From the NCBI GenBank assembly GCA_037129535.1, contig JBAXUT010000003.1, positions 7,037-71,036 of the forward strand: a stretch of DNA of 64,000 nucleotides, in the 5' to 3' direction. The DNA comes from Candidatus Saccharimonadota bacterium. GTDB taxonomy: Bacteria > Patescibacteriota > Saccharimonadia > Saccharimonadales > Saccharimonadaceae. Shown piece after piece: positions 129-61,867 of this stretch. Under the pieces are notes generated by a model. That model was not told where the DNA came from, made no database searches, and saw only the letters and a program-made list of their open reading frames with translations. How positions within the stretch are numbered: position 1 is the first letter of the stretch; each line of letters opens with the position of its first letter. A program made the position numbers and the translations under genes.

Positions 129-1202
129 ATGACAAAAAGAGATTATTACGACATACTTGGTATTCCCAAAACCGCTTCAGATGATGAGATTAAAAAGGCT
201 TATCGCAAAGCGGCAGTTGCGCATCACCCCGACAAAGAGGGTGGCGATGAGGCTAAATTCAAAGAAGCCAGCGAAGCCTACGAAGTTTTGAAGGACAGTG
301 CCAAACGCCAACGCTACGATCAATTCGGCCATGCTGGTGTCGGTGGTAATAGCGGTGGCGGTGGTAACCCGTTCGGTGGTTTTGGTGGATTTAATGGTCA
401 GAATGTTAATTTTGATTTTGGCGAAGGTGGTTTCGGTGATATTTTCAGTCAATTCTTTGGCGGCGGTGCGAGTGGCCGTCAACGCGGTCCGCAGCGCGGT
501 CGTGACGTTGAAGTAACGCTGCAACTGACTTTTGAAGAAGCGGTATTCGGTGTCGAACAGAAAATCGCCATTGATATGGACGATGTTTGTGAACATTGTA
601 AGGGCACAACTGTTGAACCTGGCTATGAATTAAAAACCTGCCCAACCTGTAAAGGTGCCGGTCAGGTCAACCGTGTCATGAACACGATTTTTGGTCCAAT
701 CCAACAAAATACTACTTGTGAAGATTGCGGTGGTCGTGGCAAAATTCCTGAAAAAACCTGTACAGCCTGTCGTGGTCGTGGCGTTCAGAAAGCCAAACGA
801 ACTATTAAATTGAAAGTTCCCGCAGGAATTGATGACGGCGCGACAATCAGATTGTCCGGTCACGGCGAAGCTATCGGCAACGGTCAAAAAGGCGACCTAT
901 ATGTTCATATCCAAGTCCGTGCCCACAAACACTTTACCCGTGAAGGCGATATTATCTTGTCCGAACAGCATATTGATATGATTGCAGCCGCCCTAGGTAC
1001 CGAGATTGAAGTCGCTACAGTTGATGGCAACATACGCATGAAAGTTCCGGCAGGCACGCAATCAGGTGCCGATTTCAAACTATCAGGTCACGGTGTGCCG
1101 CATATGAACAGCGATCGTCGCGGGCCACATATCATCAGTATTATTGTTGACACTCCAACTAAACTTTCACGAAAACAACGCGATATATTGGAACAGTTTT
1201 AG
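129..1202 (+). CDS. dnaJ: chaperone DnaJ
   Basis: J-domain with HPD (AHHPDK), Gly/Phe-rich linker, four CxxCxGxG zinc-finger repeats (CEHCKG, CPTCKG, CEDCGG, CTACRG) and a C-terminal client-binding region. Confidence 0.95.
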
Positions 1203-1217: not shown

Positions 1218-2309
1218 ATGAAAGAACCTGAAAAAGTCGCCATTCATGTTATTGGTAAAGAAATAGATAGGCCTTTTCAACGTGGCAATGACCTGTTCGC
1301 CGAAAACTTATCTGACAAATTCGGAATTGAGACTGTCATTGTACCAGGTAGTGCTGGTGCATACGACAAGGTTGACCAAGATATCATCCTGGGCCACCCC
1401 ATAATCGATGCCCGGCGGGGGAATAAACTAGGTAAGCTACAAGAATTTGCGTTAGGCAAAAGTGGAGTAGCGGCCGAAAGAACCAAGGTGATATTGTCTA
1501 GTGGCCTGGAAGAAAAAATCCCGTTAATCAATGGTCCAAAATTATGGGGAATGGACACAAAATGGCATCAATACGAACTAGCGCATGAATACATGCCCAG
1601 AACCGTCAAGGTTGCGGCTAGCGAGCCATTTGACCCCGAGAGTGCTAATACGTTGCAGGGCAAAAACCTGTTTGTGAAAGCTAATTCATCTGGCGGTGGG
1701 TCACAGAATGTTGATAAGGTTGCACGCAGTGAAGTTGCAAATGCCATTTTTAATATGAGATCTAAATTCGCTGCCGCAGAAATTGCCAATAACAAAGCCA
1801 TAAAAGATAAAGATATAATTATCCAAGAAGACGTCCCAGGTATGTCACTGGCTGGTGACCTAGTAGCGATTGATGAGGACAGCGAGCGAAAACTGGCTAA
1901 TTCTAAAAATACAGAGCTCCGTGTGTATTGCTATGTTGTTAACGGCGTTGAGCTACCAGCAAGCGAGCGACATTACGCAACGGCTCGATTATTTGAAGGT
2001 ATTCAAAAAGACGATTGGGCCTATATAGATCAGGACAGCGTACCTCAGGAAGCTTGGGATATTGCCGATGAAGTTGCAGATAGGATTATTAAAAAAACTA
2101 ATGCCCCTGGCGGTTTCTTTGCAGTGGATTTGATAAAAGGCGATGCAGGTGACGGCCGAGGCCCACGAATGTTGGTCCGAGAAATTAATATAGCCAAGCC
2201 AGTTCTGGTTAGTGCAAAAGATAATTATCGTGATGCTGTCGCGCAAAATTGGCGGTTGGCAAATGTTGTGGATGCTATGATCAAAAACGACCATGATTTC
2301 CGTCAATAA
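1218..2309 (+). CDS. divergent ATP-grasp fold ligase, substrate unknown
   Basis: ATP-grasp-like motif order read by eye: DTKWHQYELAHEYMPRT, LFVKANSSGGGSQNV, IIIQEDVPG, ELRVYCYVVNG, FFAVDL...MLVREINIAKP. It is the first of three consecutive ATP-grasp genes. Confidence 0.5.
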   Translation: MKEPEKVAIHVIGKEIDRPFQRGNDLFAENLSDKFGIETVIVPGSAGAYDKVDQDIILGHPIIDARRGNKLGKLQEFALGKSGVAAERTKVILSSGLEEKIPLINGPKLWGMDTKWHQYELAHEYMPRTVKVAASEPFDPESANTLQGKNLFVKANSSGGGSQNVDKVARSEVANAIFNMRSKFAAAEIANNKAIKDKDIIIQEDVPGMSLAGDLVAIDEDSERKLANSKNTELRVYCYVVNGVELPASERHYATARLFEGIQKDDWAYIDQDSVPQEAWDIADEVADRIIKKTNAPGGFFAVDLIKGDAGDGRGPRMLVREINIAKPVLVSAKDNYRDAVAQNWRLANVVDAMIKNDHDFRQ

Positions 2310-2463: not shown

Positions 2464-4740
2464 ATGAAATTGACGATAATTGCAGAGCCAAATGGCATTC
2501 ATCAGCAAGAGTTGATAGATTCCGCTAAACGAAAAGGTTTAGAAGTCGAGACTATAGGTGTCGATTCGTTAGATGTGTCTACAAAAAAGGTTAGTTCTAA
2601 ATTAGGTGATGCAGTTGTATGGCGCAGTTCCAAATTGGATATACGATCTGAACGTCCAGCACTAAAATCAGCATTAAAAAACAAGATTGTCGTTAGCGAC
2701 ACGGTGTTTGAGTCACCTGCTGTTTATTTCAAATATTACCAACAGCAAATATTGCAACATGAACCTGCGACCGCTAAATGGAGTATTCCTACATTTCGTT
2801 TTGCAAAATCCGATTCATTGATAAAAGCTATCGACGAAGGTTTGTTAAAATTGCCAATCATTGCAAAGCCAAACGCTGGTTCGCGCGGTGACGGCATATT
2901 ATTGATCAAAGAATTGTCAGATATTAAAACTATTGGTAAATTGAGCGATTTTGTATTCCAAAGCTTTATCCCAAATGATGGTGATTGGCGTGTGGTTATT
3001 GTCGGCGGTGCGCCTATTGGCGTTTTGTTACGACAACGCAAAGGCGATCAATTTATCAATAATATATCCAAAGGTGCTAGTGGCAGTATCGAATTGGACC
3101 CGGGTACTTTGTATATGGTTCGCAAGATTTCATCTAAAGTTGCTTCCCTGTTCCACGCTACTTTCTGTGGAGTTGATATTATCCGAAACGCCGAGACTGG
3201 CGAGTATTCGGTTCTAGAAGTAAACACCGCACCACAATGGTTCGGTGAAAACGGATTCCAATCGATTACTGGTGTCCAGGTTGCGGATGCGATCGTTGAT
3301 TGGATAATTGAACGCGACCATGTCAAAAAAGTAGGTGTTCCTAGCGCAGTCGAATCTTATTACAAAAACCGTATTCATCAGATTCCGTCTGAGGCGTTTC
3401 ACTTTGCTTCTAGGATGTGGTTGTGGACGGGTGATAGTTGGGCTCGCAAACAATTAGACATTATGCAGGAAAGTTTCATCGGTCTGACAGATGCGGATAT
3501 TGATGCCCGAATCCAGAAAATTGTTGAGACTGCCACGAATCGCTCACAGGGTGTAAATCAGAAAAAAGCATTTCGTAAGGAAGCTTTTGAAAAACATGAT
3601 AAATTGTCGCTGTATAACGCACTGTTATTCAAAACTGTTTTCTGTGACAGTGTTTATGATCTAGATATTCGTCCGTTCATTCGCAAATATGTTTCGGACA
3701 AAGACTTTATCGATCAGTTCAATAAATTAATTGATGATGGTGATTCGATTCGATTGATGTCGACTCATGCAATCAATTATTTTTACTTGTTAAAGAATTA
3801 TTTCAAAGACAAAATTAGTCTGTCTAGTTCGGTTCTAGTGACGCCGGGCGAGATATTAAAATTGCTACCAGGTTACAAGAACCTAGAAAAATCTGGGATA
3901 ATCGACCGTGAACGTAGTATCAAATTACAGATATATCTGTTGACCCACGCTATTATCGGCGCGTCCAGGTTCTACGCTAGGCGAGTTCGTGCGGCGCATT
4001 TCATTACATTCTGTAAAAAGATTGAACGATTAATTAAAAATAATTATTACGATATTTCGTTAGACAACAAATTAGAGTTTTTGGTATGTAGCCAGATATG
4101 TGGTTATGAATCTACGATTCGACAGGCTATCGAACAAGAAGCTGAACAATCAGTTTCCTGGGCTGGTAATTTCTTGGTTGATACATTAAATACACATACA
4201 TCAATAACCGGTAACTGTTTGCGGATATCAGAACATCGTAACGTCCTGTATTTGATGTCACAGCATCAGTTTGTTCGCGATACTACCAAAAAGACTTTCA
4301 GGTCACTACCAGAACTGCCATCTATCGGACGTTTGGCACGAATTAAATTGCCGGACTATGACATTAGGCGTGCAATCGCCAGGGTTGATTCGGGGGCTAC
4401 TAGTTCATCAATTGATGCATCAAATATATATATTCGTGATGGCAAATTGCACTTTACATTGTTCAACGAAAACAACCCGCTATATACCGGTAAAGAGTTC
4501 GTGACCGGAGATTTCAAGAATGCAAAAATGAAAAATACAACTGGGCACCAAGAAAGGTATGCGGTTGTGTTAAAATTTGAGTTAGGCAATCAAGCTTATG
4601 ATGTGTTATTCGCGTTGGCTGACCGACGCAAGATGTTGTACCCGATACTGTTGGGTCGCAATTTCCTGAAAGGTCGCTATACCGTAAACACTGCCCGACA
4701 GTTTATTGAAAAATCTATTAAAAGGACGAAAGGTAATTAA
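2464..4740 (+). CDS. fusion protein: RimK-like ATP-grasp ligase + uncharacterised helical middle domain + C-terminal retropepsin-like (RimB / PF05618-type) domain
   Basis: The N-terminal ~290 aa have RimK-type motifs (IIAKPNAGSRGDGILLIKE, DWRVVIVGG, VLEVNTAPQW). The C-terminal ~140 aa match the putative ATP-dependent zinc protease/retropepsin pattern (RVDSGATSSSIDASNIYI...GKLHFTL...ADRRKMLYPILLGRNFLKGRYTVN). The ~350 aa in between have no motif I recognise. Confidence 0.7.
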   Translation: MKLTIIAEPNGIHQQELIDSAKRKGLEVETIGVDSLDVSTKKVSSKLGDAVVWRSSKLDIRSERPALKSALKNKIVVSDTVFESPAVYFKYYQQQILQHEPATAKWSIPTFRFAKSDSLIKAIDEGLLKLPIIAKPNAGSRGDGILLIKELSDIKTIGKLSDFVFQSFIPNDGDWRVVIVGGAPIGVLLRQRKGDQFINNISKGASGSIELDPGTLYMVRKISSKVASLFHATFCGVDIIRNAETGEYSVLEVNTAPQWFGENGFQSITGVQVADAIVDWIIERDHVKKVGVPSAVESYYKNRIHQIPSEAFHFASRMWLWTGDSWARKQLDIMQESFIGLTDADIDARIQKIVETATNRSQGVNQKKAFRKEAFEKHDKLSLYNALLFKTVFCDSVYDLDIRPFIRKYVSDKDFIDQFNKLIDDGDSIRLMSTHAINYFYLLKNYFKDKISLSSSVLVTPGEILKLLPGYKNLEKSGIIDRERSIKLQIYLLTHAIIGASRFYARRVRAAHFITFCKKIERLIKNNYYDISLDNKLEFLVCSQICGYESTIRQAIEQEAEQSVSWAGNFLVDTLNTHTSITGNCLRISEHRNVLYLMSQHQFVRDTTKKTFRSLPELPSIGRLARIKLPDYDIRRAIARVDSGATSSSIDASNIYIRDGKLHFTLFNENNPLYTGKEFVTGDFKNAKMKNTTGHQERYAVVLKFELGNQAYDVLFALADRRKMLYPILLGRNFLKGRYTVNTARQFIEKSIKRTKGN

Positions 4741-7515: not shown

Positions 7516-7552
7516 AAATAAAATACCTATCGGCTGATAGGTATTTTATTTT
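7516..7552 (+). terminator. A-tract/hairpin/T-tract (bidirectional-type) terminator
   Basis: AAAATAAAATACCTATC-GGCT-GATAGGTATTTTATTTT. Confidence 0.7.
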
Positions 7553-7554
7553 GG

Positions 7555-7720
7555 TGAAACCCTGTTGGGGTTTGGACTCACGACTTTTTGCGGAGCAAAA
7601 ATAGTCGTGAGGTCGCGTAATGCAGCGAAATAAAAATATGTTTACATGTTTTTATGAGCAAATGGAGGAGTGGAGATTTATCTCAAGATAAATCGGAGCG
7701 ATAGTTCTCACCGACCTCAC
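7555..7720 (+). repeat. tRNA-linked structured element, copy E1
   Basis: Hairpin H1 spans 7574-7614. The conserved core contains an 11-bp hairpin (7630-7655, loop TTTA) followed by GGAGGAG (7664-7670). The element ends in TCTCACCGACCTCAC (7706-7720), which is identical to tRNA positions 7499-7513. Confidence 0.7.
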
Positions 7721-9783: not shown

Positions 9784-9895
9784 GTCCGCTATTTGTTACC
9801 GCACACTCTACGTGTGGAGCTTACACCAGCACGTGGCGTTCGGCTGCGGCGCTTCGCCCGCACAGGCTATTATCACAAAGTAACCAATATCGGAC
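9784..9895 (+). repeat. palindromic intergenic element, family 2, copy A
   Basis: The 48-nt core 9801-9848 (GCACACTCTACGTGTGG.GCTT.C.CCAGCACGTGGCGTTCGGCTGCG) is 45/48 identical to 25628-25675. It is enclosed by the outer stem GTCCGCTATTTGTTAC / GTAACCAATATCGGAC. Confidence 0.6.
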
Positions 9896-12717: not shown

Positions 12718-12743
12718 TTTGCTAAGGGCTGAACCCTTAGCAA
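12718..12743. repeat. REP-like hairpin (copy 1)
   Basis: TTTGCTAAGGG-CTGA-ACCCTTAGCAA; the loop is the reverse complement (one mismatch) of copies 2 and 3. Confidence 0.7.
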
Positions 12744-12758
12744 TCTTTTTTGGGTAGA

Positions 12759-13379: not shown

Positions 13380-13403
13380 ATTACAGGGATATTATCACAA
13401 ATC

Positions 13404-13426
13404 TGCTAAGGGTTCAACCCTTAGCA
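13404..13426. repeat. REP-like hairpin (copy 2)
   Basis: TGCTAAGGG-TTCA-ACCCTTAGCA. Confidence 0.7.
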
Positions 13427-13468
13427 AGTGGTAAGGTGTCATAATAGGTATATTAATAAGGGGATTAG

Positions 13469-25600: not shown

Positions 25601-25719
25601 GTCCAATCTATTTAAGTTATTCCAACAGCACACTCTACGTGTGGCGCTTGCGCCAGCACGTGGCGTTCGGCTGCGAACAAGTTCGCACAGTCTGTTGGGA
25701 TAACTTAAATAGGCTGGAC
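25601..25719 (+). repeat. palindromic intergenic element, family 2, copy B
   Basis: The ~28-bp outer stem pairs GTCCAATCTATTTAAGTTATTCCAACAG with CTGTTGGGATAACTTAAATAGGCTGGAC. Inner hairpins are GGCGC-TT-GCGCC and GCGAAC-AA-GTTCGC. The core 25628-25675 is shared with copy A. Confidence 0.6.
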
Positions 25720-28874: not shown

Positions 28875-28888
28875 TCCAAGTTATTCAT

Positions 28889-28920
28889 AAAAAATACCAT
28901 TCAGCCGAATGGTATTTTTT
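28889..28920. terminator. bidirectional-type terminator hairpin
   Basis: AAAAAATACCATTC-AGCC-GAATGGTATTTTTT. Confidence 0.6.
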
Positions 28921-28923
28921 ATT

Positions 28924-29134
28924 TGGTCGGGGTGGAAGGATAGCGGCTCCGTCTTCTCCGCTTATTCGCAAAAGAAAATATGGTGGGATGAAAGGACATC
29001 GGCTAAAGCCTCCTCCATTCGTTCGCGGAAATATGTAAACACATTTCCGCTTCGCTCATTTCGCCAAACTTCGACCTACAAATTTTGCCCTGGCAAAATT
29101 TGGGTCGAAGGTTTGAGGCATTTCGCCCCAAGGT
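28924..29134 (-). repeat. tRNA-linked structured element, copy E2
   Basis: The H1 arm is complementary to 15 nt of the tRNA-Pro T arm. The core hairpin is at 29025-29050 and GGAGGAGG (reverse strand) at 29009-29016. The element ends in a 29-nt near-duplicate (28911-28939) of the tRNA-Pro 3' end plus trailer (29162-29190). Confidence 0.65.
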
Positions 29135-29136
29135 CC

Positions 29137-29174
29137 AAATAAAAAAGACTATCCTACGGATGGTCTTTTTTATT
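29137..29174 (-). terminator. terminator hairpin after tRNA-Pro
   Basis: A-tract/hairpin/T-tract: AAATAAAAAAGACCATCC-GTAG-GATAGTCTTTTTTATTT in tRNA orientation. Confidence 0.6.
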
Positions 29175-29250
29175 TGGTCGGGGTGAAAGGACTCAAACCT
29201 TCGACCTCACGGTCCCAAACCGCGCGCGCTATCAACTGCGCCACACCCCG
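29175..29250 (-). tRNA. tRNA-Pro (anticodon UGG), CCA encoded, non-canonical A19/U56
   Basis: Acceptor CGGGGTG/CACCCCG, anticodon arm CGCGG-TTTGGGA-CCGTG, T arm GAAGG-TTTGAGT-CCTTT, D loop AGTTGATA. Confidence 0.9.
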
Positions 29251-29318
29251 ATACAATGTGGTTACTTGGTAGATTATACCGCATAACAGGCGTGATTTCT
29301 AGCCCCTGGGGGAATAAA

Positions 29319-34424: not shown

Positions 34425-34472
34425 GTAAATATAATAACAGAAAATAGTTGGTCGTATTCAATACGAAGGGTC

Positions 34473-34512
34473 AAAATAAAAATAACCAACTTTTAGCTGG
34501 TTATTTTTATTT
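34473..34512 (-). terminator. terminator hairpin after tRNA-Arg copy A
   Basis: AAAATAAAAATAACCAGC-TAAAAG-TTGGTTATTTTTATTTT in tRNA orientation. Confidence 0.55.
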
Positions 34513-34588
34513 TGGTACCCCGGGTTGGAATCGGACCAACGACCTTAGGCTTAGAAGTCCTCTGCTCTATCCACTGAGCTACCGGGGC
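34513..34588 (-). tRNA. tRNA-Arg (anticodon UCU), copy A, CCA encoded, non-canonical
   Basis: Acceptor GCCCCGG/CCGGGGT and anticodon loop CTTCTAA. The anticodon stem GAGGA/GCCTA has only three Watson-Crick pairs. The T loop is TCCGATT (C at position 55). The sequence is 100% identical to 37313-37388. Confidence 0.8.
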
Positions 34589-37140: not shown

Positions 37141-37272
37141 TATATAATATGGTTGGAAGTCTGCAAGCATCCTCCGCTCATTCGCTAAAAAATGTAAACA
37201 CTTCTTAGATTCAATCGCTGCGCCGTCCCAACGACTATTTTTGTTTCGCAAAAAGTCCTTGACTCAACTCCA
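37141..37272 (-). repeat. tRNA-linked structured element, copy E3
   Basis: GTCGTTGG copy of the tRNA-Arg T-stem region, core hairpin at 37175-37198 (loop TTTA), GCGGAGGATG, and a terminal TTCCAACC equal to the tRNA T-stem 3' strand. Confidence 0.6.
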
Positions 37273-37274
37273 CT

Positions 37275-37312
37275 TGGAGGGACCAAAAAAATAAGCCAAG
37301 ATATAATCCTGG
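37275..37312 (-). terminator. terminator hairpin after tRNA-Arg copy B
   Basis: AAAAAAATAAGCCAGG-ATTATATC-TTGGCTTATTTTTTT in tRNA orientation. Confidence 0.55.
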
Positions 37313-37388
37313 CTTATTTTTTTGGTACCCCGGGTTGGAATCGGACCAACGACCTTAGGCTTAGAAGTCCTCTGCTCTATCCACTGAG
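37313..37388 (-). tRNA. tRNA-Arg (anticodon UCU), copy B
   Basis: Identical to copy A over 79 bp; plausible own promoter (TATAAT about 17 nt upstream on the reverse strand). Confidence 0.8.
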
Positions 37389-37469
37389 CTACCGGGGCAC
37401 AGTGCACCGTGTCCATTATACCAAATTATAGATGTAATTGGTGCTCCCCGTCTGTAGACTAATTTTTTT

Positions 37470-40673: not shown

Positions 40674-40698
40674 CTGCTAAGGGTTCAACCCTTAGCAG
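40674..40698. repeat. REP-like hairpin (copy 3)
   Basis: CTGCTAAGGG-TTCA-ACCCTTAGCAG, same core as 13404-13426. Confidence 0.65.
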
Positions 40699-40735
40699 GG
40701 GGGTGAGGCGCGGTTGGGTTTTTTTGGGTAAAAAT

Positions 40736-45588: not shown

Positions 45589-45665
45589 GCACCCGTAGCT
45601 CAGTGGATTAGAGCATCTGTCTTCGGAACAGAGGGTCGGCGGTTCGAGTCCGTCCGGGTGTACCA
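45589..45665 (+). tRNA. tRNA-Arg (anticodon UCG), CCA encoded
   Basis: Acceptor GCACCCG/CGGGTGT, anticodon arm TCTGT-CTTCGGA-ACAGA, T loop TTCGAGT. Confidence 0.93.
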
Positions 45666-46796: not shown

Positions 46797-46833
46797 AATT
46801 AAAAATCAGACCTGTTGGTCTGGTTTTTAATTT
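46797..46833 (+). terminator. terminator hairpin after tRNA-Lys(CUU)
   Basis: AAATTAAAAATCAGACC-TGTT-GGTCTGGTTTTTAATTT. Confidence 0.65.
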
Positions 46834-46835
46834 GG

Positions 46836-46978
46836 AAGCGACCAGCTGTGGCTCGAAACCATGACTCACGCTGAAAGCGTGATAGTCGTGGGTCGCGAAG
46901 TGCAGCGAAATAAAAATGTGTTTACATATTTTTATGAACAAACGGAGGAGCGGAACAAAGTGGAGCGATAGTCTCACC
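46836..46978 (+). repeat. tRNA-linked structured element, copy E4
   Basis: The core from about 46896 to 46953 is roughly 90% identical by eye to E1. The hairpin is at 46910-46935 and GGAGGAG at 46944-46950. The element ends in GGAGCGATAGTCTCACC. Confidence 0.7.
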
Positions 46979-47037
46979 TAATCTATCAATACACTAATAT
47001 TTTATCGTGACCAAGTCCCATTTATCATTAATATTAT

Positions 47038-58958: not shown

Positions 58959-61127
58959 GTGGACTTGGTGGTTGTTGCTTCTTTAGCTGCTTCTTTAGCT
59001 GCCATAATAACAGCTGGGCTTGGTGTAGTTGTTTGGTTTGGCAAGCAACGCGATGGTCTTCGTAGGTCATTTTTAGTACTTTCGTTATTTATCTGTTTAT
59101 GGATATTAGGGAATGTCTTTTTCGGGGTTGTGGATGTTTATTGGCAGTATATAATATCACTGTTGAGTTACGCTTTTGCTATGGGTGTTTCTGTTCATTT
59201 GTTAATTTTCAGCCTTTTATTAGTCAGAAATAGTAAATTTAGTTTTTTAAATCAGATTAAGGTTGGTTTCGTTGGCTATGTGGTTGGTATAGTATCAACT
59301 ATCCCAGGCCTAGTAGCTTCCGGTGTAGAGAATAGCAAAATCATCACTAATCCAATAGCATTGAATATTTACGGGCTTGTTTTAGCTGGGTATTTATTAT
59401 CAGCCTCTATAGTATTAATCGCTAATAAAATTCGCAAGAATAAGACAAATTCTATGATTAACATGGTGCTTTTGGGTATGGCCATTTCTTCTTTGGGGGG
59501 TGTTATTTTCAATTTAATTTTTCCTATACTTGGGGTTTATCAATTTGTGCAACTTGGTCCGGCTAGTGCAGCTATATTTATAGCCTTAGTGGCTTATTCT
59601 GTCATAAAACATGGTCTTTTTGATGTTCGCTTGGCTATCGTGCGCAGTGTTACTTATACTATGATCATCGCTGTATTGGCTGGTATTTATGCAGGGTTGA
59701 CATTCGTGGCTTCGTCTCTCTTTAACTTTGGCAAAGTTAGTCTTTGGCAGACAGTTTTCAATGCTGTCGTAAGCCTAGGTTTGGTATTCTTGTTCCAGCC
59801 TCTAAAGCGCTTTTTTGATAAAGTTACTAACAAAATATTCTACAAAGACAACTATAATACCGACGACTTTTTTGCGAAGTTGAACAAAATTTTGGGATTT
59901 ACTACGGATTTGCGAGGGTTATTGGAGCATACCGCTACTGAAATAAAGCAAACATTAAAGGGCGAACAGGCATTTTTCTATATAAATATATCAGAGGGGC
60001 ACTATATTTCAGCCGGTACGGCAAAGCATAAACAATTGCCCAAGGCCGACGCTGACCAACTAAGCGATTTTGCAAAAAATAATGGTGAAATAATAGTTTC
60101 GTCATTGCTAGAAGATGACAGCTCGATTAAGCGTTTGATGATTAGCCACAAAATTGAATTGGTTTTGCCATTAATCCAGGAAGGTAAGGTTTTGGGATTG
60201 TTCTGTCTAGGTGACCACCTAACTTCTAGCTATACTAACCGCGATATCAAAGTTCTAAACACGATTTCTAACGAATTAATCATCGCTATTCAAAATGCCC
60301 TGGCGGTGCAGGAAATTCGTGAATTTAATATCACATTGCAACAGCGAATTGCCAATGCAACTAGGGAGTTGCGTGCCAGCAATGCTCAGTTACGCCACCT
60401 GGACAAGGCAAAGGACGAGTTCCTTAGCATGGCTTCTCACCAACTGCGAACGCCGCTAACCAGCGTCAAGGGCTACATATCGATGATATTAGAAGGTGAC
60501 GCCGGCAAGGTTACTGGTGATCAAAAGAAGTTATTAACAGAAGCATTCGGTAACAGCGAACGCATGGTTGGGTTAATTAACGATTTCCTATCTGTTTCGC
60601 GTATTCAAACTGGTAGGTTCGTGATTGATAAAACTCCGCTAGACCTGTCGCTAGTGGTGGAACAAGAAACTAACAGCTTGAAACAAAACGCTAGTGCCCG
60701 CCAGATGGAATTGGTCTACGTTAAACAACCGAATTTCCCAATGTTAGATATTGATGAGGGCAAGATTCGCCAAGTCATAATGAATTTCATCGACAACGCT
60801 ATTTATTATTCACATCCAGGTACGGCAATTAATGTTAGTATGCAGGTCCAGGGTAAGGACGCTGTATTCACAGTCAAAGATACCGGTATTGGCGTTCCAG
60901 CCAGCGAACGCGACGAATTGTTCACAAAATTCTACCGTGCCAGCAATGCCAAGAAAACGCGCCCAGATGGTACGGGTGTTGGGCTGTTTTTGGCAAAGAA
61001 AATTGTTGACGACCACGACGGCAAGATTATATTTGAATCAGTAGAAGGTAAGGGAAGTACGTTCGGGTTTAGTCTACCAATAAAAGAATTAGCTGCCGCT
61101 GACCAGGCCGACGATTTGAAAAATTAG
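58959..61127 (+). CDS. sensor histidine kinase with ~7-8 TM N-terminal domain and a GAF-like linker
   Basis: H-box FLSMASHQLRTPLTSVKGY, N-box IMNFIDNAIYYS, G-boxes VKDTGIGVP and GTGVGLFLAKKIV; GTG start directly after the upstream stop. Confidence 0.85.
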   Translation: MDLVVVASLAASLAAIITAGLGVVVWFGKQRDGLRRSFLVLSLFICLWILGNVFFGVVDVYWQYIISLLSYAFAMGVSVHLLIFSLLLVRNSKFSFLNQIKVGFVGYVVGIVSTIPGLVASGVENSKIITNPIALNIYGLVLAGYLLSASIVLIANKIRKNKTNSMINMVLLGMAISSLGGVIFNLIFPILGVYQFVQLGPASAAIFIALVAYSVIKHGLFDVRLAIVRSVTYTMIIAVLAGIYAGLTFVASSLFNFGKVSLWQTVFNAVVSLGLVFLFQPLKRFFDKVTNKIFYKDNYNTDDFFAKLNKILGFTTDLRGLLEHTATEIKQTLKGEQAFFYINISEGHYISAGTAKHKQLPKADADQLSDFAKNNGEIIVSSLLEDDSSIKRLMISHKIELVLPLIQEGKVLGLFCLGDHLTSSYTNRDIKVLNTISNELIIAIQNALAVQEIREFNITLQQRIANATRELRASNAQLRHLDKAKDEFLSMASHQLRTPLTSVKGYISMILEGDAGKVTGDQKKLLTEAFGNSERMVGLINDFLSVSRIQTGRFVIDKTPLDLSLVVEQETNSLKQNASARQMELVYVKQPNFPMLDIDEGKIRQVIMNFIDNAIYYSHPGTAINVSMQVQGKDAVFTVKDTGIGVPASERDELFTKFYRASNAKKTRPDGTGVGLFLAKKIVDDHDGKIIFESVEGKGSTFGFSLPIKELAAADQADDLKN
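61089..61127 (+). repeat. 39-bp direct repeat, copy 1 (3' end of the histidine kinase gene)
   Basis: TTAGCTGCCGCTGACCAGGCCGACGATTTGAAAAATTAG is 37/39 identical to 61829-61867. Confidence 0.85.
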
Positions 61128-61141: not shown

Positions 61142-61867
61142 ATGATAAAAAAGAATTATAAATATCAGATAAAATTAGATATTGATAAAGATTCTTGGAA
61201 TTGGTATGACGGTTGTAATTCTGATTGTTTTGGTATCGATTGTTGTGAAGGGTTGCCTCTCGAAGTTGTGGCCAAAATAAAAGGCCAGCCTAAACGTAAA
61301 GCATATAGTTTTTTAGATTCTTTTTTGAAACAAAAATACATTGACGAAAAATCTCAGATTGATGATTATACTGATTCTCTAGATAAAAGATTTCAACAAT
61401 CTTTCCAAAGTGCGTGCGATAAAATGGTCGCAGTTATTGGACGGCCACTATATCGTGATGACTTTACAATATATCTGACGACTTTCCCCAGATGCCCTTA
61501 TCATTATGAGATAGGAGCAGTTTATGAATTTATAGGTTGGAAGGGTTCGTTAGAAACTTTTTTACATGAATTATGTCATTTCCAATTTATACATTATTGG
61601 TATAAAAACCCGAAATCACCAATCTCAAAACTAAGCTATGAAGATTTTGATTATCTAAAAGAGTCGTTGACCATGATATTGGACGCAGATTTTTATCCAT
61701 TGATTAGTAAGCCCGATAATGGCTACCCTATGCACAAAAAGTTTCGTGGCGAATTAACCAAATTTTGGGATACTAATAAAAACTTTGATGAATTAGTGGA
61801 TTTTGGGTTAAAGATTTTGCCTAAATTTTTAGCTGCCGTTGACCAGGCCGACGATCTGAAAAATTAG
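61142..61867 (+). CDS. HExxH-motif protein, paralog 2
   Basis: FLHELCHFQF and YLKESLT, collinear with 57433-58158. Its last 11 residues (AAVDQADDLKN) come from the 39-bp repeat and match the kinase C-terminus (AAADQADDLKN). Confidence 0.5.
   Translation: MIKKNYKYQIKLDIDKDSWNWYDGCNSDCFGIDCCEGLPLEVVAKIKGQPKRKAYSFLDSFLKQKYIDEKSQIDDYTDSLDKRFQQSFQSACDKMVAVIGRPLYRDDFTIYLTTFPRCPYHYEIGAVYEFIGWKGSLETFLHELCHFQFIHYWYKNPKSPISKLSYEDFDYLKESLTMILDADFYPLISKPDNGYPMHKKFRGELTKFWDTNKNFDELVDFGLKILPKFLAAVDQADDLKN
61829..61867 (+). repeat. 39-bp direct repeat, copy 2
   Basis: TTAGCTGCCGTTGACCAGGCCGACGATCTGAAAAATTAG, exactly 740 bp downstream of copy 1. Confidence 0.85.

Follow-up and report, generated by a model that had tools for sequence, protein, structure and literature searches.

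The tRNA-Pro locus and its non-coding appendix

The DNA analysed here, which we call the window, is a 64,000-nt stretch from a Candidatus Saccharimonadota bacterium. On its minus strand, an intact tRNA-Pro(tgg) gene occupies positions 29175-29250 (ARAGORN; Rfam RF00005, 60.9 bits), and its last 18 nt form the presumed target segment of the arrangement described below. The neighbouring genes encode GatD, MurT and a DUF4190 protein (Pfam), and the gene that follows the non-coding region is convergent. The last 17 nt of tRNA-Pro(tgg) and the start of its trailer reappear 251 bp downstream. A first-pass annotation had described this as a 29-nt duplication covering the T-stem 3' strand, the acceptor 3' strand, CCA and the beginning of the A-tract, and the duplication is real: read directly, 28911-28939 (GGTATTTTTTATTTGGTCGGGGTGGAAGG) and 29162-29190 (GGTCTTTTTTATTTGGTCGGGGTGAAAGG) are identical at 27 of 29 positions, a repeat finder lengthens the match to 35 nt at 91% (28906-28940 versus 29157-29191, spacing 251), and self-BLAST of the window also recovers it. 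The proposed span agrees with the sequence, and folding bears out a hairpin after each copy in the tRNA orientation.

We then followed the minus strand from the tRNA towards the next gene. The CCA is abutted by t1 (29138-29174), a terminator-like hairpin with an A-tract and a T-tract identified from sequence and folds. Next comes A' (29103-29137), a degenerate antisense copy, 35 nt long, of the last ~32 nt of tRNA-Pro; it starts with TGG, opposite CCA, and differs at 4 of 29 aligned positions. Self-BLAST returns 29103-29206 as an inverted repeat of itself, with 82% identity over 107 nt. An arm of 15 nt antisense to the T arm had been noted before; the antisense arm exists, at more than the length given. 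A small hairpin, h (29079-29102; folds), tips the stem formed by A' and A1, the latter (29065-29078; TAGGTCGAAGTTTG) repeating in sense orientation the variable loop, the T-stem 5' strand and the T-loop's first bases. The type-1 core (29001-29064), supported by pattern match, nhmmer and covariation, consists in this order of an imperfect hairpin with two tandem G.A loops, GGAGGAGG and a small variable hairpin; the hairpin around 29025-29050 and GGAGGAGG on the reverse strand at 29009-29016 had been pointed out correctly. The terminal GAT of this module overlaps A2-1 (28981-29000), the first, degenerate sense tail copy (GATGTCCTTTCATCCCACCA), which closes a complete cassette. Beyond it lies module Y (28941-28980), an older core truncated on its 5' side and reduced to the hairpin 3' arm, GCGAATAAGCGGAGAAG and a small hairpin. 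It is followed by A2-2 (28924-28940), the outer sense tail copy including CCA (TCCTTCCACCCCGACCA), which is the duplicated tail noticed initially and matches the tRNA-Pro tail at 16 of 17 positions, and by a second terminator-like hairpin, t2 (28887-28923).

Comparison with related loci shows where these parts belong. Locus L124 carries a complete version of the older cassette directly adjoining tRNA-Pro, with a tRNA-proximal terminator identical to t2 (37/37) and a full core whose 3' part matches module Y at 40 of 47 positions; the cassette parts of the window and of L124 stand in a relation of circular permutation, as seen by sequence comparison, which bears only indirectly on a possible excision as a circle with re-integration. 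The truncated module Y is also found in L176, where t1, A', h and A1 together are 107/110 identical to the window while the genes are just 70-87% identical. At L179, t1 is matched at 36 of 37 positions. By sequence comparison, the 251 bp comprise a complete cassette and, from an older one, the 3' 40 nt; the interval from tRNA-Pro to the next gene contains two stacked members of a Saccharibacteria-wide family of gene-less cassettes. The single inserted segment of ~250 bp proposed at first does not hold in this form. The outer repeat and t2 belong to the older cassette.

As had been anticipated, the insert is too small for a recombinase: it is non-coding, with no recombinase found nearby. The 27-codon open reading frame reported in it exists and is indeed unconserved elsewhere, its ATG arising at the tRNA-Pro-specific junction CGAT|GTCC; most other tRNAs have GATATCC or GATAGTC at the junction and no ATG in that place. 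We therefore rejected a coding role for this frame, which is an accident of the tRNA-Pro junction.

A cassette family behind tRNA genes

Half of the window's tRNA genes bear a non-coding appendix of 170-290 bp with conserved, covarying structure, and the core pattern has four exact matches in the window where 0.00 are expected (100 shuffles). Besides the Pro unit, a cassette of the same layout lies behind tRNA-Lys(ttt) (7516-7720, plus strand; tail copy TCTCACCGACCTCAC) and another behind tRNA-Lys(ctt) (46797-46979, plus strand; tail copy short), both recovered by repeat finder and core pattern. The core pattern also identified a cassette behind the second tRNA-Arg(tct) (37151-37322, minus strand), with a tail copy of just TTCCAACC. 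After the first tRNA-Arg(tct), a terminator and antisense-arm-like remnant without core was recognised by eye (34445-34512, minus strand).

Across genomes, the core pattern was found at 62 loci, nearly all from Saccharibacteria MAGs, and an nhmmer search returned 99 core matches in 1.34 Mb. A same-strand tRNA lies within 600 nt upstream of 78 of these 99 cores, at a median distance of 96 nt (5th-95th percentile, 83-203), and the cores sit behind at least 21 tRNA species. The cassettes are ~130-190 bp in size, gene-less and always oriented like the tRNA, and the tRNA upstream of the units is intact (ARAGORN, Rfam). They are restricted to tRNA 3' ends. The same architecture recurs in ~100 independent contigs from many studies and assemblers.

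In the tRNA orientation, a terminator hairpin is followed by the antisense arm (a degenerate copy of the tRNA's final ~32 nt), a small hairpin, a sense arm (variable loop and T-stem 5' strand), the conserved imperfect hairpin module and a sense tail copy, and this layout is identical at all tRNAs carrying cassettes. The type-1 module is positioned exactly between T-loop nt 58 and 59, and the sense copy at the end of the cassette corresponds to the last 18 nt of the same tRNA. The left flank of the module is TTCG, TTTG or GTC, varying with the T-loop of the tRNA, and the core end CGAT resembles the CGA of the T-loop. Inside the tRNA, the repeat measures exactly 18 nt in 11 tRNA-adjacent type-1 repeats from six tRNA species; in three type-2 units it measures 21 nt. 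About half of the type-1 units have tail repeats, and in the others these are truncated. The antisense arm is 80% identical to a perfect reverse complement (70 units, over ~30 nt), and in 45 of the 70 the alignment opens at the first base, with TGG opposite CCA.

Several other identities were considered for these parts. Hairpin h is found only within cassettes, and its reading as a genome-wide repeat was rejected. Adenine mutagenesis of the antisense arm in the manner of a DGR was rejected because the arm carries substitutions of every type. A tRNA- or tmRNA-like product of the other strand was dismissed as well: by eye, the arm is too degenerate for a T arm or an acceptor stem, and ARAGORN finds no tmRNA in the window. 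Rfam 15 at gathering thresholds returns tRNAs only, and at permissive E-values on five locus sets just chance miRNA-like hairpin matches. Three core patterns have 0 matches in 2.9 million viral contigs, and a search of the full-text literature found no description of such cassettes.

Presence, absence and stacking among relatives

A comparison with tRNA-Pro loci lacking the interruption had been suggested, and such a locus was found: L077 is an orthologous empty site, with tRNA-Pro, one terminator and the same downstream gene, and nothing between. Out of ~115 tRNA-Pro loci, about 58 are empty; a type-1 unit occupies 24, and some 12 have the antisense arm only or another core. Two alleles from one species, L125 and L142, are set apart by a single unit, and the filled one has the resident terminator on its distal side. 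The initial proposal of an insertion into the T-arm region is partly borne out by the indel polymorphism at L077, by the fixed start in the T-loop and by the L125/L142 pair, though not as the insertion of one element. The 29-nt duplication is itself no obligatory footprint, since many related loci keep the interior without it, an outcome that had been named beforehand as refuting the proposal: L076, L080, L086, L106, L156, L170 and L171 retain a tail copy of 7-13 nt, with neither CCA nor a second terminator.

Between close relatives, cassettes are present, absent, module-swapped or stacked, and swapping and stacking are also seen at L028, L055 and L057. Older cores are always truncated from the 5' side. 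The 3' side of tRNA-Pro is a variable region. Small gene-bearing inserts lie between tail copies at L124 (1.25 kb) and L071 (0.54 kb). An island-type junction, ACCA|TATAGTATTTTCGC, is followed by two ORFs of unknown function, a histidine phosphatase and an enolase, with no integrase among them, which speaks against an integrated island; same-species loci nonetheless diverge immediately after CCA.

Origin and possible role of the cassettes

Our preferred reading, which we hold tentatively and at slightly less than an even chance, is that the cassette is a non-autonomous insertion element recombining with the T-loop-to-CCA segment of the tRNA via factors acting in trans. The incoming cassette would bring a tail and a terminator to replace the old ones, which would be shoved downstream together with any older cassettes. 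The reaction could be performed by a site-specific recombinase or by RecA after natural transformation, the tRNA body and the 18-nt tail copy then acting as homology arms; RecA, RuvB and type IV pilus genes are encoded in the window (Pfam). The antisense arm would pair with the sense arms into a single-strand rod rebuilding a double-stranded copy of the target, with the conserved hairpin module as the part read by a genome-specific trans factor. Folds do pair the antisense arm with A1 and the tail copy, and circularised units reach z = -5 to -9, values that are likely overstated because the shuffles were mononucleotide. Core identity has a median of 0.885 within genomes versus 0.80 between genomes (p = 0.001), and cores at different tRNAs of one genome are closer than same-tRNA cores across genomes. 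Against an insertion element, the best identity between cores at different tRNAs of one genome is 96.7%, with no very recent jump among them. A Pfam scan of 20 window ORFs gave neither a recombinase nor a transposase or reverse transcriptase. At other loci, no recurrent protein cluster was seen downstream of units (clusters read by eye).

A bolder proposal, which we regard as doubtful if still within reach, is that the cassettes may be either a new recombinase-less class built on tRNA or new tRNA-specific regulatory RNAs. As a recombinase-less class, the antisense and sense copies of the tRNA 3' third would form a self-contained target mimic, and at least three module kinds would home to scaffold positions defined to the single nucleotide (type 1 to nt 58/59 of the T-loop, type 2a to nt 55/56, type 2b to the hairpin tip). 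Spread might proceed through an ssDNA or RNA intermediate, the terminated pre-tRNA or the tRNA tail serving as splint or primer. The alternative would be a new RNA family with one RNA per tRNA. If the cassettes are mobile, they are DNA that colonises many tRNA genes without encoding a recombinase, using the conserved tRNA as a portable landing site; this would bear on gene flow in naturally competent, uncultured CPR bacteria, and the few genetically tractable strains could gain from it a natural "safe harbour" logic of insertion. If they are RNAs, they form a new tRNA-specific class, one per tRNA. Either way, the cassettes are a ready marker of recombination and strain history at tRNA loci. 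Saccharibacteria genomes are tiny and gene-dense.

The first alternative to an insertion element sees in the cassette a structured RNA with a function: produced by read-through of the tRNA terminator or in some other way, it would sense, sequester or process its cognate tRNA. We consider this somewhat unlikely but a serious rival. The antisense arm and the tRNA-tail mimic would act on the tRNA, the hairpin and GGAGGAG would bind a protein or the ribosome, and duplication, stacking and swapping would be by-products of recombination between repeated sequences. The covariation of the core speaks for such an RNA and for an insertion element alike. Its hairpin has 16 pairs and two conserved G.A/A.G loops; pairing is kept in 95.3% of cells versus 82.7% in shuffles, compensatory changes occur in 13 of the 16 pairs, and 0 of 500 shuffles reach the observed values. 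The whole unit has a folding z of -6.1, which likewise agrees with an insertion element. In favour of an RNA and against an insertion element are the tandem G.A loops, typical of RNA motifs, a G.U pair conserved in 65 of 72 and an excess of G.U over A.C, which suggest that the sense strand folds, possibly as an RNA with its own function. The sense strand folds better than the antisense strand (-64.7 versus -59.1 kcal/mol), and among substitutions in the antisense arm, those compatible with wobble pairing are biased towards the sense strand, 126 to 84 (p = 0.0045). The concerted evolution of cores within genomes would fit co-evolution with one protein partner, and the orientation always follows the tRNA.

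The opening of the antisense arm adds to this likeness. In the T-box bulge, UGGN pairs with the NCCA of the tRNA, and the antisense arm likewise starts with TGG+N, complementary to the cognate NCCA. The resemblance ends there: the complementarity of the cassette extends over ~30 nt, there is no Stem I or specifier, no Rfam T-box match is found up to E = 10, and the unit stands after a tRNA gene instead of in the leader of an aminoacyl-tRNA synthetase or amino-acid gene. Further points weigh against a functional RNA. The next window gene being convergent, there is no downstream target to regulate, and the Pro unit lies behind a strong hairpin with a T-tract and has no promoter-like site inside, the sole one at the locus being the tRNA's own (29273-29301). 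The cassette is dispensable, since only about a third of tRNA-Pro loci carry a unit; many copies are truncated or without tail copy, and Rfam gives no match even at permissive thresholds.

The second alternative, which we judge unlikely, restricts the mobile part to antisense arm, hairpin, A1 and core, joined directly behind a resident terminator. Synthesis would restart at T-loop nt 59 and copy the last 18 nt, CCA and terminator again, the duplicated block being the exact 3' end of the primary tRNA transcript; this would fit a template-switch or an RNA- or ssDNA-mediated step, with the antisense arm as a splint on the tRNA tail. We know of no described precedent for such copying. Whether the proximal terminator is carried by the element or resident is a point on which the sequence evidence conflicts. 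In L028 (initiator tRNA-Met) and L071, the two units that look youngest, a perfect repeat of 56 nt runs from T-loop nt 59 (or 56) through the entire terminator to its last T, which fits insertion behind a resident terminator, with the target duplicated, at least as well as an insertion element. As the antisense and A1 arms of these two units are already diverged (by eye) while the repeat is perfect, the arms would have been carried in and the repeat made on site. One and the same 35-nt terminator stands behind tRNA-Pro whether the site is empty or filled, in genomes just ~67-75% identical upstream, which again counts against an insertion element bringing its own terminator. The antisense arm adjoins the T-tract, and its frequent TGG start, the truncation of older cores from the 5' side and the likeness of the core end to the T-loop are in keeping with a resident terminator as well. 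On the other side, in most of ~25 loci the repeat stops 0-3 nt past CCA and the two terminators appear unrelated (by eye) despite tail copies that are 16-18/18 identical, and of the alleles L125 and L142 the filled one has the resident terminator in distal and a different one in proximal position. The near-identity of the block from t1 to A1 with L176, whose genes are far less similar, and the match of t2 to the proximal terminator of L124 also speak for a terminator borne by the element. Neither the 20 window ORFs nor the downstream clusters offer a reverse transcriptase or other candidate enzyme.

We consider it very unlikely that the cassettes are CIME-like decayed remnants of integrase-encoding islands or prophages once lodged in these tRNA genes. 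Direct repeats of a tRNA tail that start in the T-loop are, as Williams reportedly set out in 2002, the classic signature of tyrosine integrases, and the tail repeats here start in the same place; the variability on the 3' side of tRNA-Pro and the tail-flanked, gene-bearing inserts of L124 and L071 also agree with remnants. Accretion at tRNA genes, with decayed elements retaining att sites, has been described (PMC5704250). However, the interior is not gene debris but a covarying module that recurs behind 21 tRNA species, always in the same place in the T-loop, the units have neither an integrase nor gene fragments beside them, and the cores are missing from the viral contigs. A repeat due to chance similarity or misassembly has practically no probability, given the independent contigs that share it and the core matches in the window that shuffles do not produce.

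The insertion-element reading can be placed beside known systems. As in integrative elements that target the tRNA T-loop, the proximal junction restores an intact tRNA, the former tail ends up downstream as a repeat from the T-loop (18 or 21 nt), and successive cassettes are stacked in tandem. Unlike these elements, the cassette is only 130-190 bp, holds a structured module instead of decayed genes, carries an antisense copy of its target and has versions matched to at least 21 tRNA species, of which one genome has several, with a core that evolves in concert; no integrase is present in the 251-bp insert and no cognate integrase or autonomous parent was found. Their gene-less derivatives, the CIMEs, are decayed ICEs or IMEs that keep attL and attR and have lost the integration and transfer genes (PMC5704250). 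The cassette resembles them in having no integration genes of its own and differs in its interior, which, as a covarying module shared by 21 tRNA species, does not come from a larger gene-bearing element.

In elements of the CTX-phi type (IMEX), a folded single-stranded attP imitates the double-stranded target. The cassette likewise sets an inverted target copy, a spacer hairpin and a sense copy side by side, predicting a duplex mimic of the target, and shares the integrated order of inverted copy, spacer and rebuilt site. Its target is the tRNA tail and not dif, a module of 65-90 nt splits one arm, there is no attached phage genome, and by eye there are no XerCD-type half-sites; nor does the core show a dif-like 11-6-11 arrangement, and a dif/Xer-like site in the hairpin loop was rejected for its unsuitable spacing, also by eye.

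Like REPIN/RAYT and the IS200/IS605 miniatures (PATEs), the cassettes are short and non-coding, have imperfect hairpins with conserved mismatches, adjoin terminators and evolve in concert per genome, and mobilisation in trans is proposed here. Unlike them, their arms copy the neighbouring tRNA, not a genome-wide repeat, and they stand strictly behind tRNA genes. The lagging-strand orientation of IS200/IS605 miniatures has no counterpart in the window, where GC skew is positive throughout and, in a small sample, two units lie on each strand with no replication-strand bias. With integron arrays the cassettes, gene-less or single-gene, share stacking at one site with older ones distal, and a shared recombination sequence, in this case the tail copy, closes each of them; they differ by the absence of an IntI gene and attI, by a recombination sequence that is the tRNA's own 3' end, and by the content of most of them, a structured non-coding module and not a gene. 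In contrast to MITEs, the inverted arms copy the local tRNA and vary by locus, insertion is confined to tRNA 3' ends, and the repeats measure 18-56 nt. Finally, Rfam gives no intron-family match, and unlike in a tRNA intron the functional tRNA is uninterrupted, the interrupted copies at L012 and L027 being partial or pseudogenes.

The duplicated tail of tRNA-Pro

The tRNA-Pro(tgg) gene lies on the minus strand (29175-29250), and its last 17 nt, together with the first trailer bases, recur 251 bp downstream with 27/29 matches, as described in the first-pass annotation; the repeat finder lengthened this repeat to 35 nt at 91%. Behind each tail copy stands its own hairpin, bearing both an A-tract and a T-tract (t1, 29138-29174, and t2, 28887-28923). 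An uninterrupted version of the site is found at the orthologous locus L077, where the tRNA is followed by one terminator and then by the same downstream gene. The tail repeat is genuine, and it flags a polymorphism of the insertion type.

Read in the direction of the tRNA, the interval opens with t1, after which comes A', a degenerate antisense version, 35 nt long, of the last ~32 nt of the tRNA; its first bases are TGG, facing CCA. Next are the small hairpin h and A1, which repeats the variable loop and T-stem 5' strand in sense. The conserved core that follows is made up of an imperfect hairpin, GGAGGAGG, another small hairpin and CGAT. Behind it stand a degenerate first copy of the tail (A2-1, GATGTCCTTTCATCCCACCA), a second core of which only the 3' 40 nt are present, the outer copy of the tail that includes CCA (A2-2) and finally t2. 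Because of this order of parts between the repeats, the 251 bp hold one whole cassette and, behind it, the 3' end of an older cassette, so that the earlier proposal of a ~250-bp insertion stands as to the polymorphism and fails as to a single segment.

A family of tRNA-linked cassettes

The cassette family is widespread, modular and undescribed: Rfam holds no family for it at any threshold, a literature search found no description, and viral contigs scanned with the core patterns gave no match. The core pattern has 4 matches in the window versus 0.00 expected, behind tRNA-Lys(ttt), tRNA-Lys(ctt), one of two tRNA-Arg(tct) and tRNA-Pro. When one genome per species was scanned, the pattern turned up at 62 loci, nearly all in Candidatus Saccharibacteria MAGs, and the core HMM detected 99 copies in 1.34 Mb of collected loci. 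For 78 of these 99, covering 21 tRNA species, a same-strand tRNA lies at most 600 nt upstream (median 96 nt, 5th-95th percentile 83-203); most of the others are cut by locus ends. The antisense and sense arms of each unit correspond to the tRNA beside it, and unit orientation is always that of the tRNA, with units on both replication strands (2 + 2 in the window, where GC skew is constant throughout). Across 70 units, A' shows 80% identity to a perfect reverse complement of the tRNA tail, and in 45 of these units the alignment starts at TGG. The core splits the sense copy at one fixed position, and 11 tRNA-adjacent repeats, from 6 tRNA species, have an in-tRNA part of exactly 18 nt, running from T-loop nt 59 to CCA. 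The two tRNA-Arg(tct) of the window (34504-34588 and 37314-37398) are identical genes (85 nt, 98%) 2.8 kb apart; one has a full cassette, the other only a terminator and an antisense-arm-like remnant.

Other cores occupy the same scaffold. Type 2a (GAGAACTGCC...GGCAGTTCGCAAGG...GGGGTCGCG...GTGAC) is sited after the T-stem 5' strand, resulting in a 21-nt repeat, and stands behind Lys, Met, Leu, Ser, Arg and Pro tRNAs (loci L009, ~2600-2800 (+), L027, L041, L059, L125 and L152), while type 2b takes the place of hairpin h (L071, L118, L178); neither has an Rfam match. In L027, a type-2a and a type-1 core succeed each other behind one A1 arm. Nearly full-length pseudo-tRNAs with a type-1 core in the T-loop occur in L012 (~1950-2130 (+)) and at a different place in L027 (~230-420 (-)), one being a tRNA-Gln-like and one a tRNA-Met-like copy. 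In L152, a tRNA-Pro 5' fragment upstream of the tRNA-Pro (match offset 4018) bears a type-2a core within its D-loop.

Presence, absence and exchange of units

Among 120 loci sharing the tRNA-Pro 3' 32-mer, the site is empty in ~58, a type-1 unit is present in 24, and ~12 have the antisense arm only or another core. L125 and L142, 96% identical upstream, differ by one type-2a unit, and the terminator adjoining the tRNA in L142 is distal to the unit in L125. Against L176, the closest relative found, gene identity is 70-87%, yet the stretch from t1 through A' and h to A1 agrees at 107/110 positions and the core at only 42/64. In L124, the window's t2 (37/37) directly adjoins the tRNA, and behind it lies an untruncated version of the core that the window has in shortened form; each of these two tRNA-Pro loci is a circular permutation of the other. 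Two same-species pairs differ by a swap of the t1 + A' block, with h + A1 + core unchanged. Core identity is higher between different tRNAs of the same MAG (median 0.885) than for the same tRNA in other MAGs (0.80; p = 0.001).

The window's tRNA-Arg(tcg) (45589-45665) is without a cassette and its counterparts in L003, L009, L031 and L036 have one, the downstream flank GCTTATGCTTGC being common to the window and L003; this makes a second presence/absence case. In the L063/L067/L087 cluster and others, at least 90% identical upstream of tRNA-Pro, three unrelated sequences occur right after CCA, and the tRNA-Pro 3' side is a hotspot for rearrangement or insertion beyond cassettes. Past the tRNA end, L124 has a 1.25-kb insert (~190 to 1470 nt) with two ORFs, flanked by core-end-plus-tail repeats, and L071 a 0.54-kb insert (~215 to 715 nt) whose single ORF is Cys-rich and which lies between tail-CCA copies; no obvious recombinase is encoded in either insert.

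Possible origins, and other repeats of the window

We rank first, tentatively, a non-autonomous tRNA-tail insertion cassette. The anatomy is that of an insertion regenerating the tRNA and displacing the old tail, as tRNA-targeting integrative elements do; the cassette, however, comes with no enzyme gene. Gene-less derivatives accreting in tandem are known as CIMEs (PMC5704250). The tRNA-Pro cassette has the genes for GatD/MurT and for a DUF4190 protein as neighbours, in a window of housekeeping DNA (DnaJ, RuvB, RecA, pilus genes, RNase Y), and clustering the ORFs beside units in other loci yielded no recurrent protein cluster. A mechanism in trans could rely on an unlinked site-specific recombinase, or on RecA-dependent recombination following natural transformation, with the tRNA body and tail copy as homology arms, which would account for mosaic exchange at conserved anchors. 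The antisense arm might enable a single strand to fold up as a double-stranded replica of the target. During CTX-phi integration one strand folds in this manner, and the arm would allow a similar target mimic.

A functional tRNA-linked RNA, ranked second, is a less probable but serious rival. The core itself is structured: aligning 72 distinct cores gave a 16-pair hairpin broken by two tandem G.A/A.G loops, with 95.3% of cells paired versus 82.7% in shuffles and compensatory changes in 13/16 pairs; 0/500 shuffles reached the observed values, and pairing collapses when the partner is slid by 1-3 columns. A loop-adjacent G.U pair is kept in 65/72 cores and G.U exceeds A.C elsewhere in the hairpin by about 2 to 1; the folding strand is therefore probably the tRNA-sense one. 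For the window's tRNA-Pro unit, the predicted fold is -64.7 kcal/mol (z = -6.1) in sense and -59.1 kcal/mol on the opposite strand.

Insertion behind a terminator with target duplication, ranked third, we consider improbable. The loci give conflicting evidence on the origin of the terminator. In most loci the repeat ends within 0-3 nt of CCA and the two terminators look unrelated next to perfect tail copies, which favours an element-borne terminator. However, the two units that look youngest, those of L028 initiator tRNA-Met and L071, show perfect 56-nt repeats that take in the terminator, and an identical terminator follows empty and filled tRNA-Pro sites of genomes only ~67-75% identical upstream, both of which allow insertion behind a resident terminator with target duplication. 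In the first 35 nt after the tRNA, the terminator hairpins of L106, L111, L137, L170, L171 and L173 are identical or nearly so (at most 5 mismatches/36 nt). L137 itself seems to have lost the antisense-arm/A1 hairpin by deletion between GGTTT repeats. Decayed islands, ranked fourth, are very improbable.

Three further repeats occur in the window. A hairpin-forming 51-nt repeat (92%; 9798-9848 and 25625-25675, both intergenic), with nothing in Rfam at the gathering threshold, has an apical stem that differs on both sides between copies (GGAGCTTACACC vs GGCGCTTGCGCC). The 29-nt palindromic hairpin CTGCTAAGGGTTCAACCCTTAGCAG is present three times in or beside intergenic gaps (12719-12747, 13403-13431 and 40674-40702), and the three may be shared terminators. 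A 39-nt repeat (95%; 61089-61127 and 61829-61867) is found at the 3' ends of the adjacent ORFs 58959-61127 and 61142-61867, which suggests paralogous proteins with the same C-terminus.
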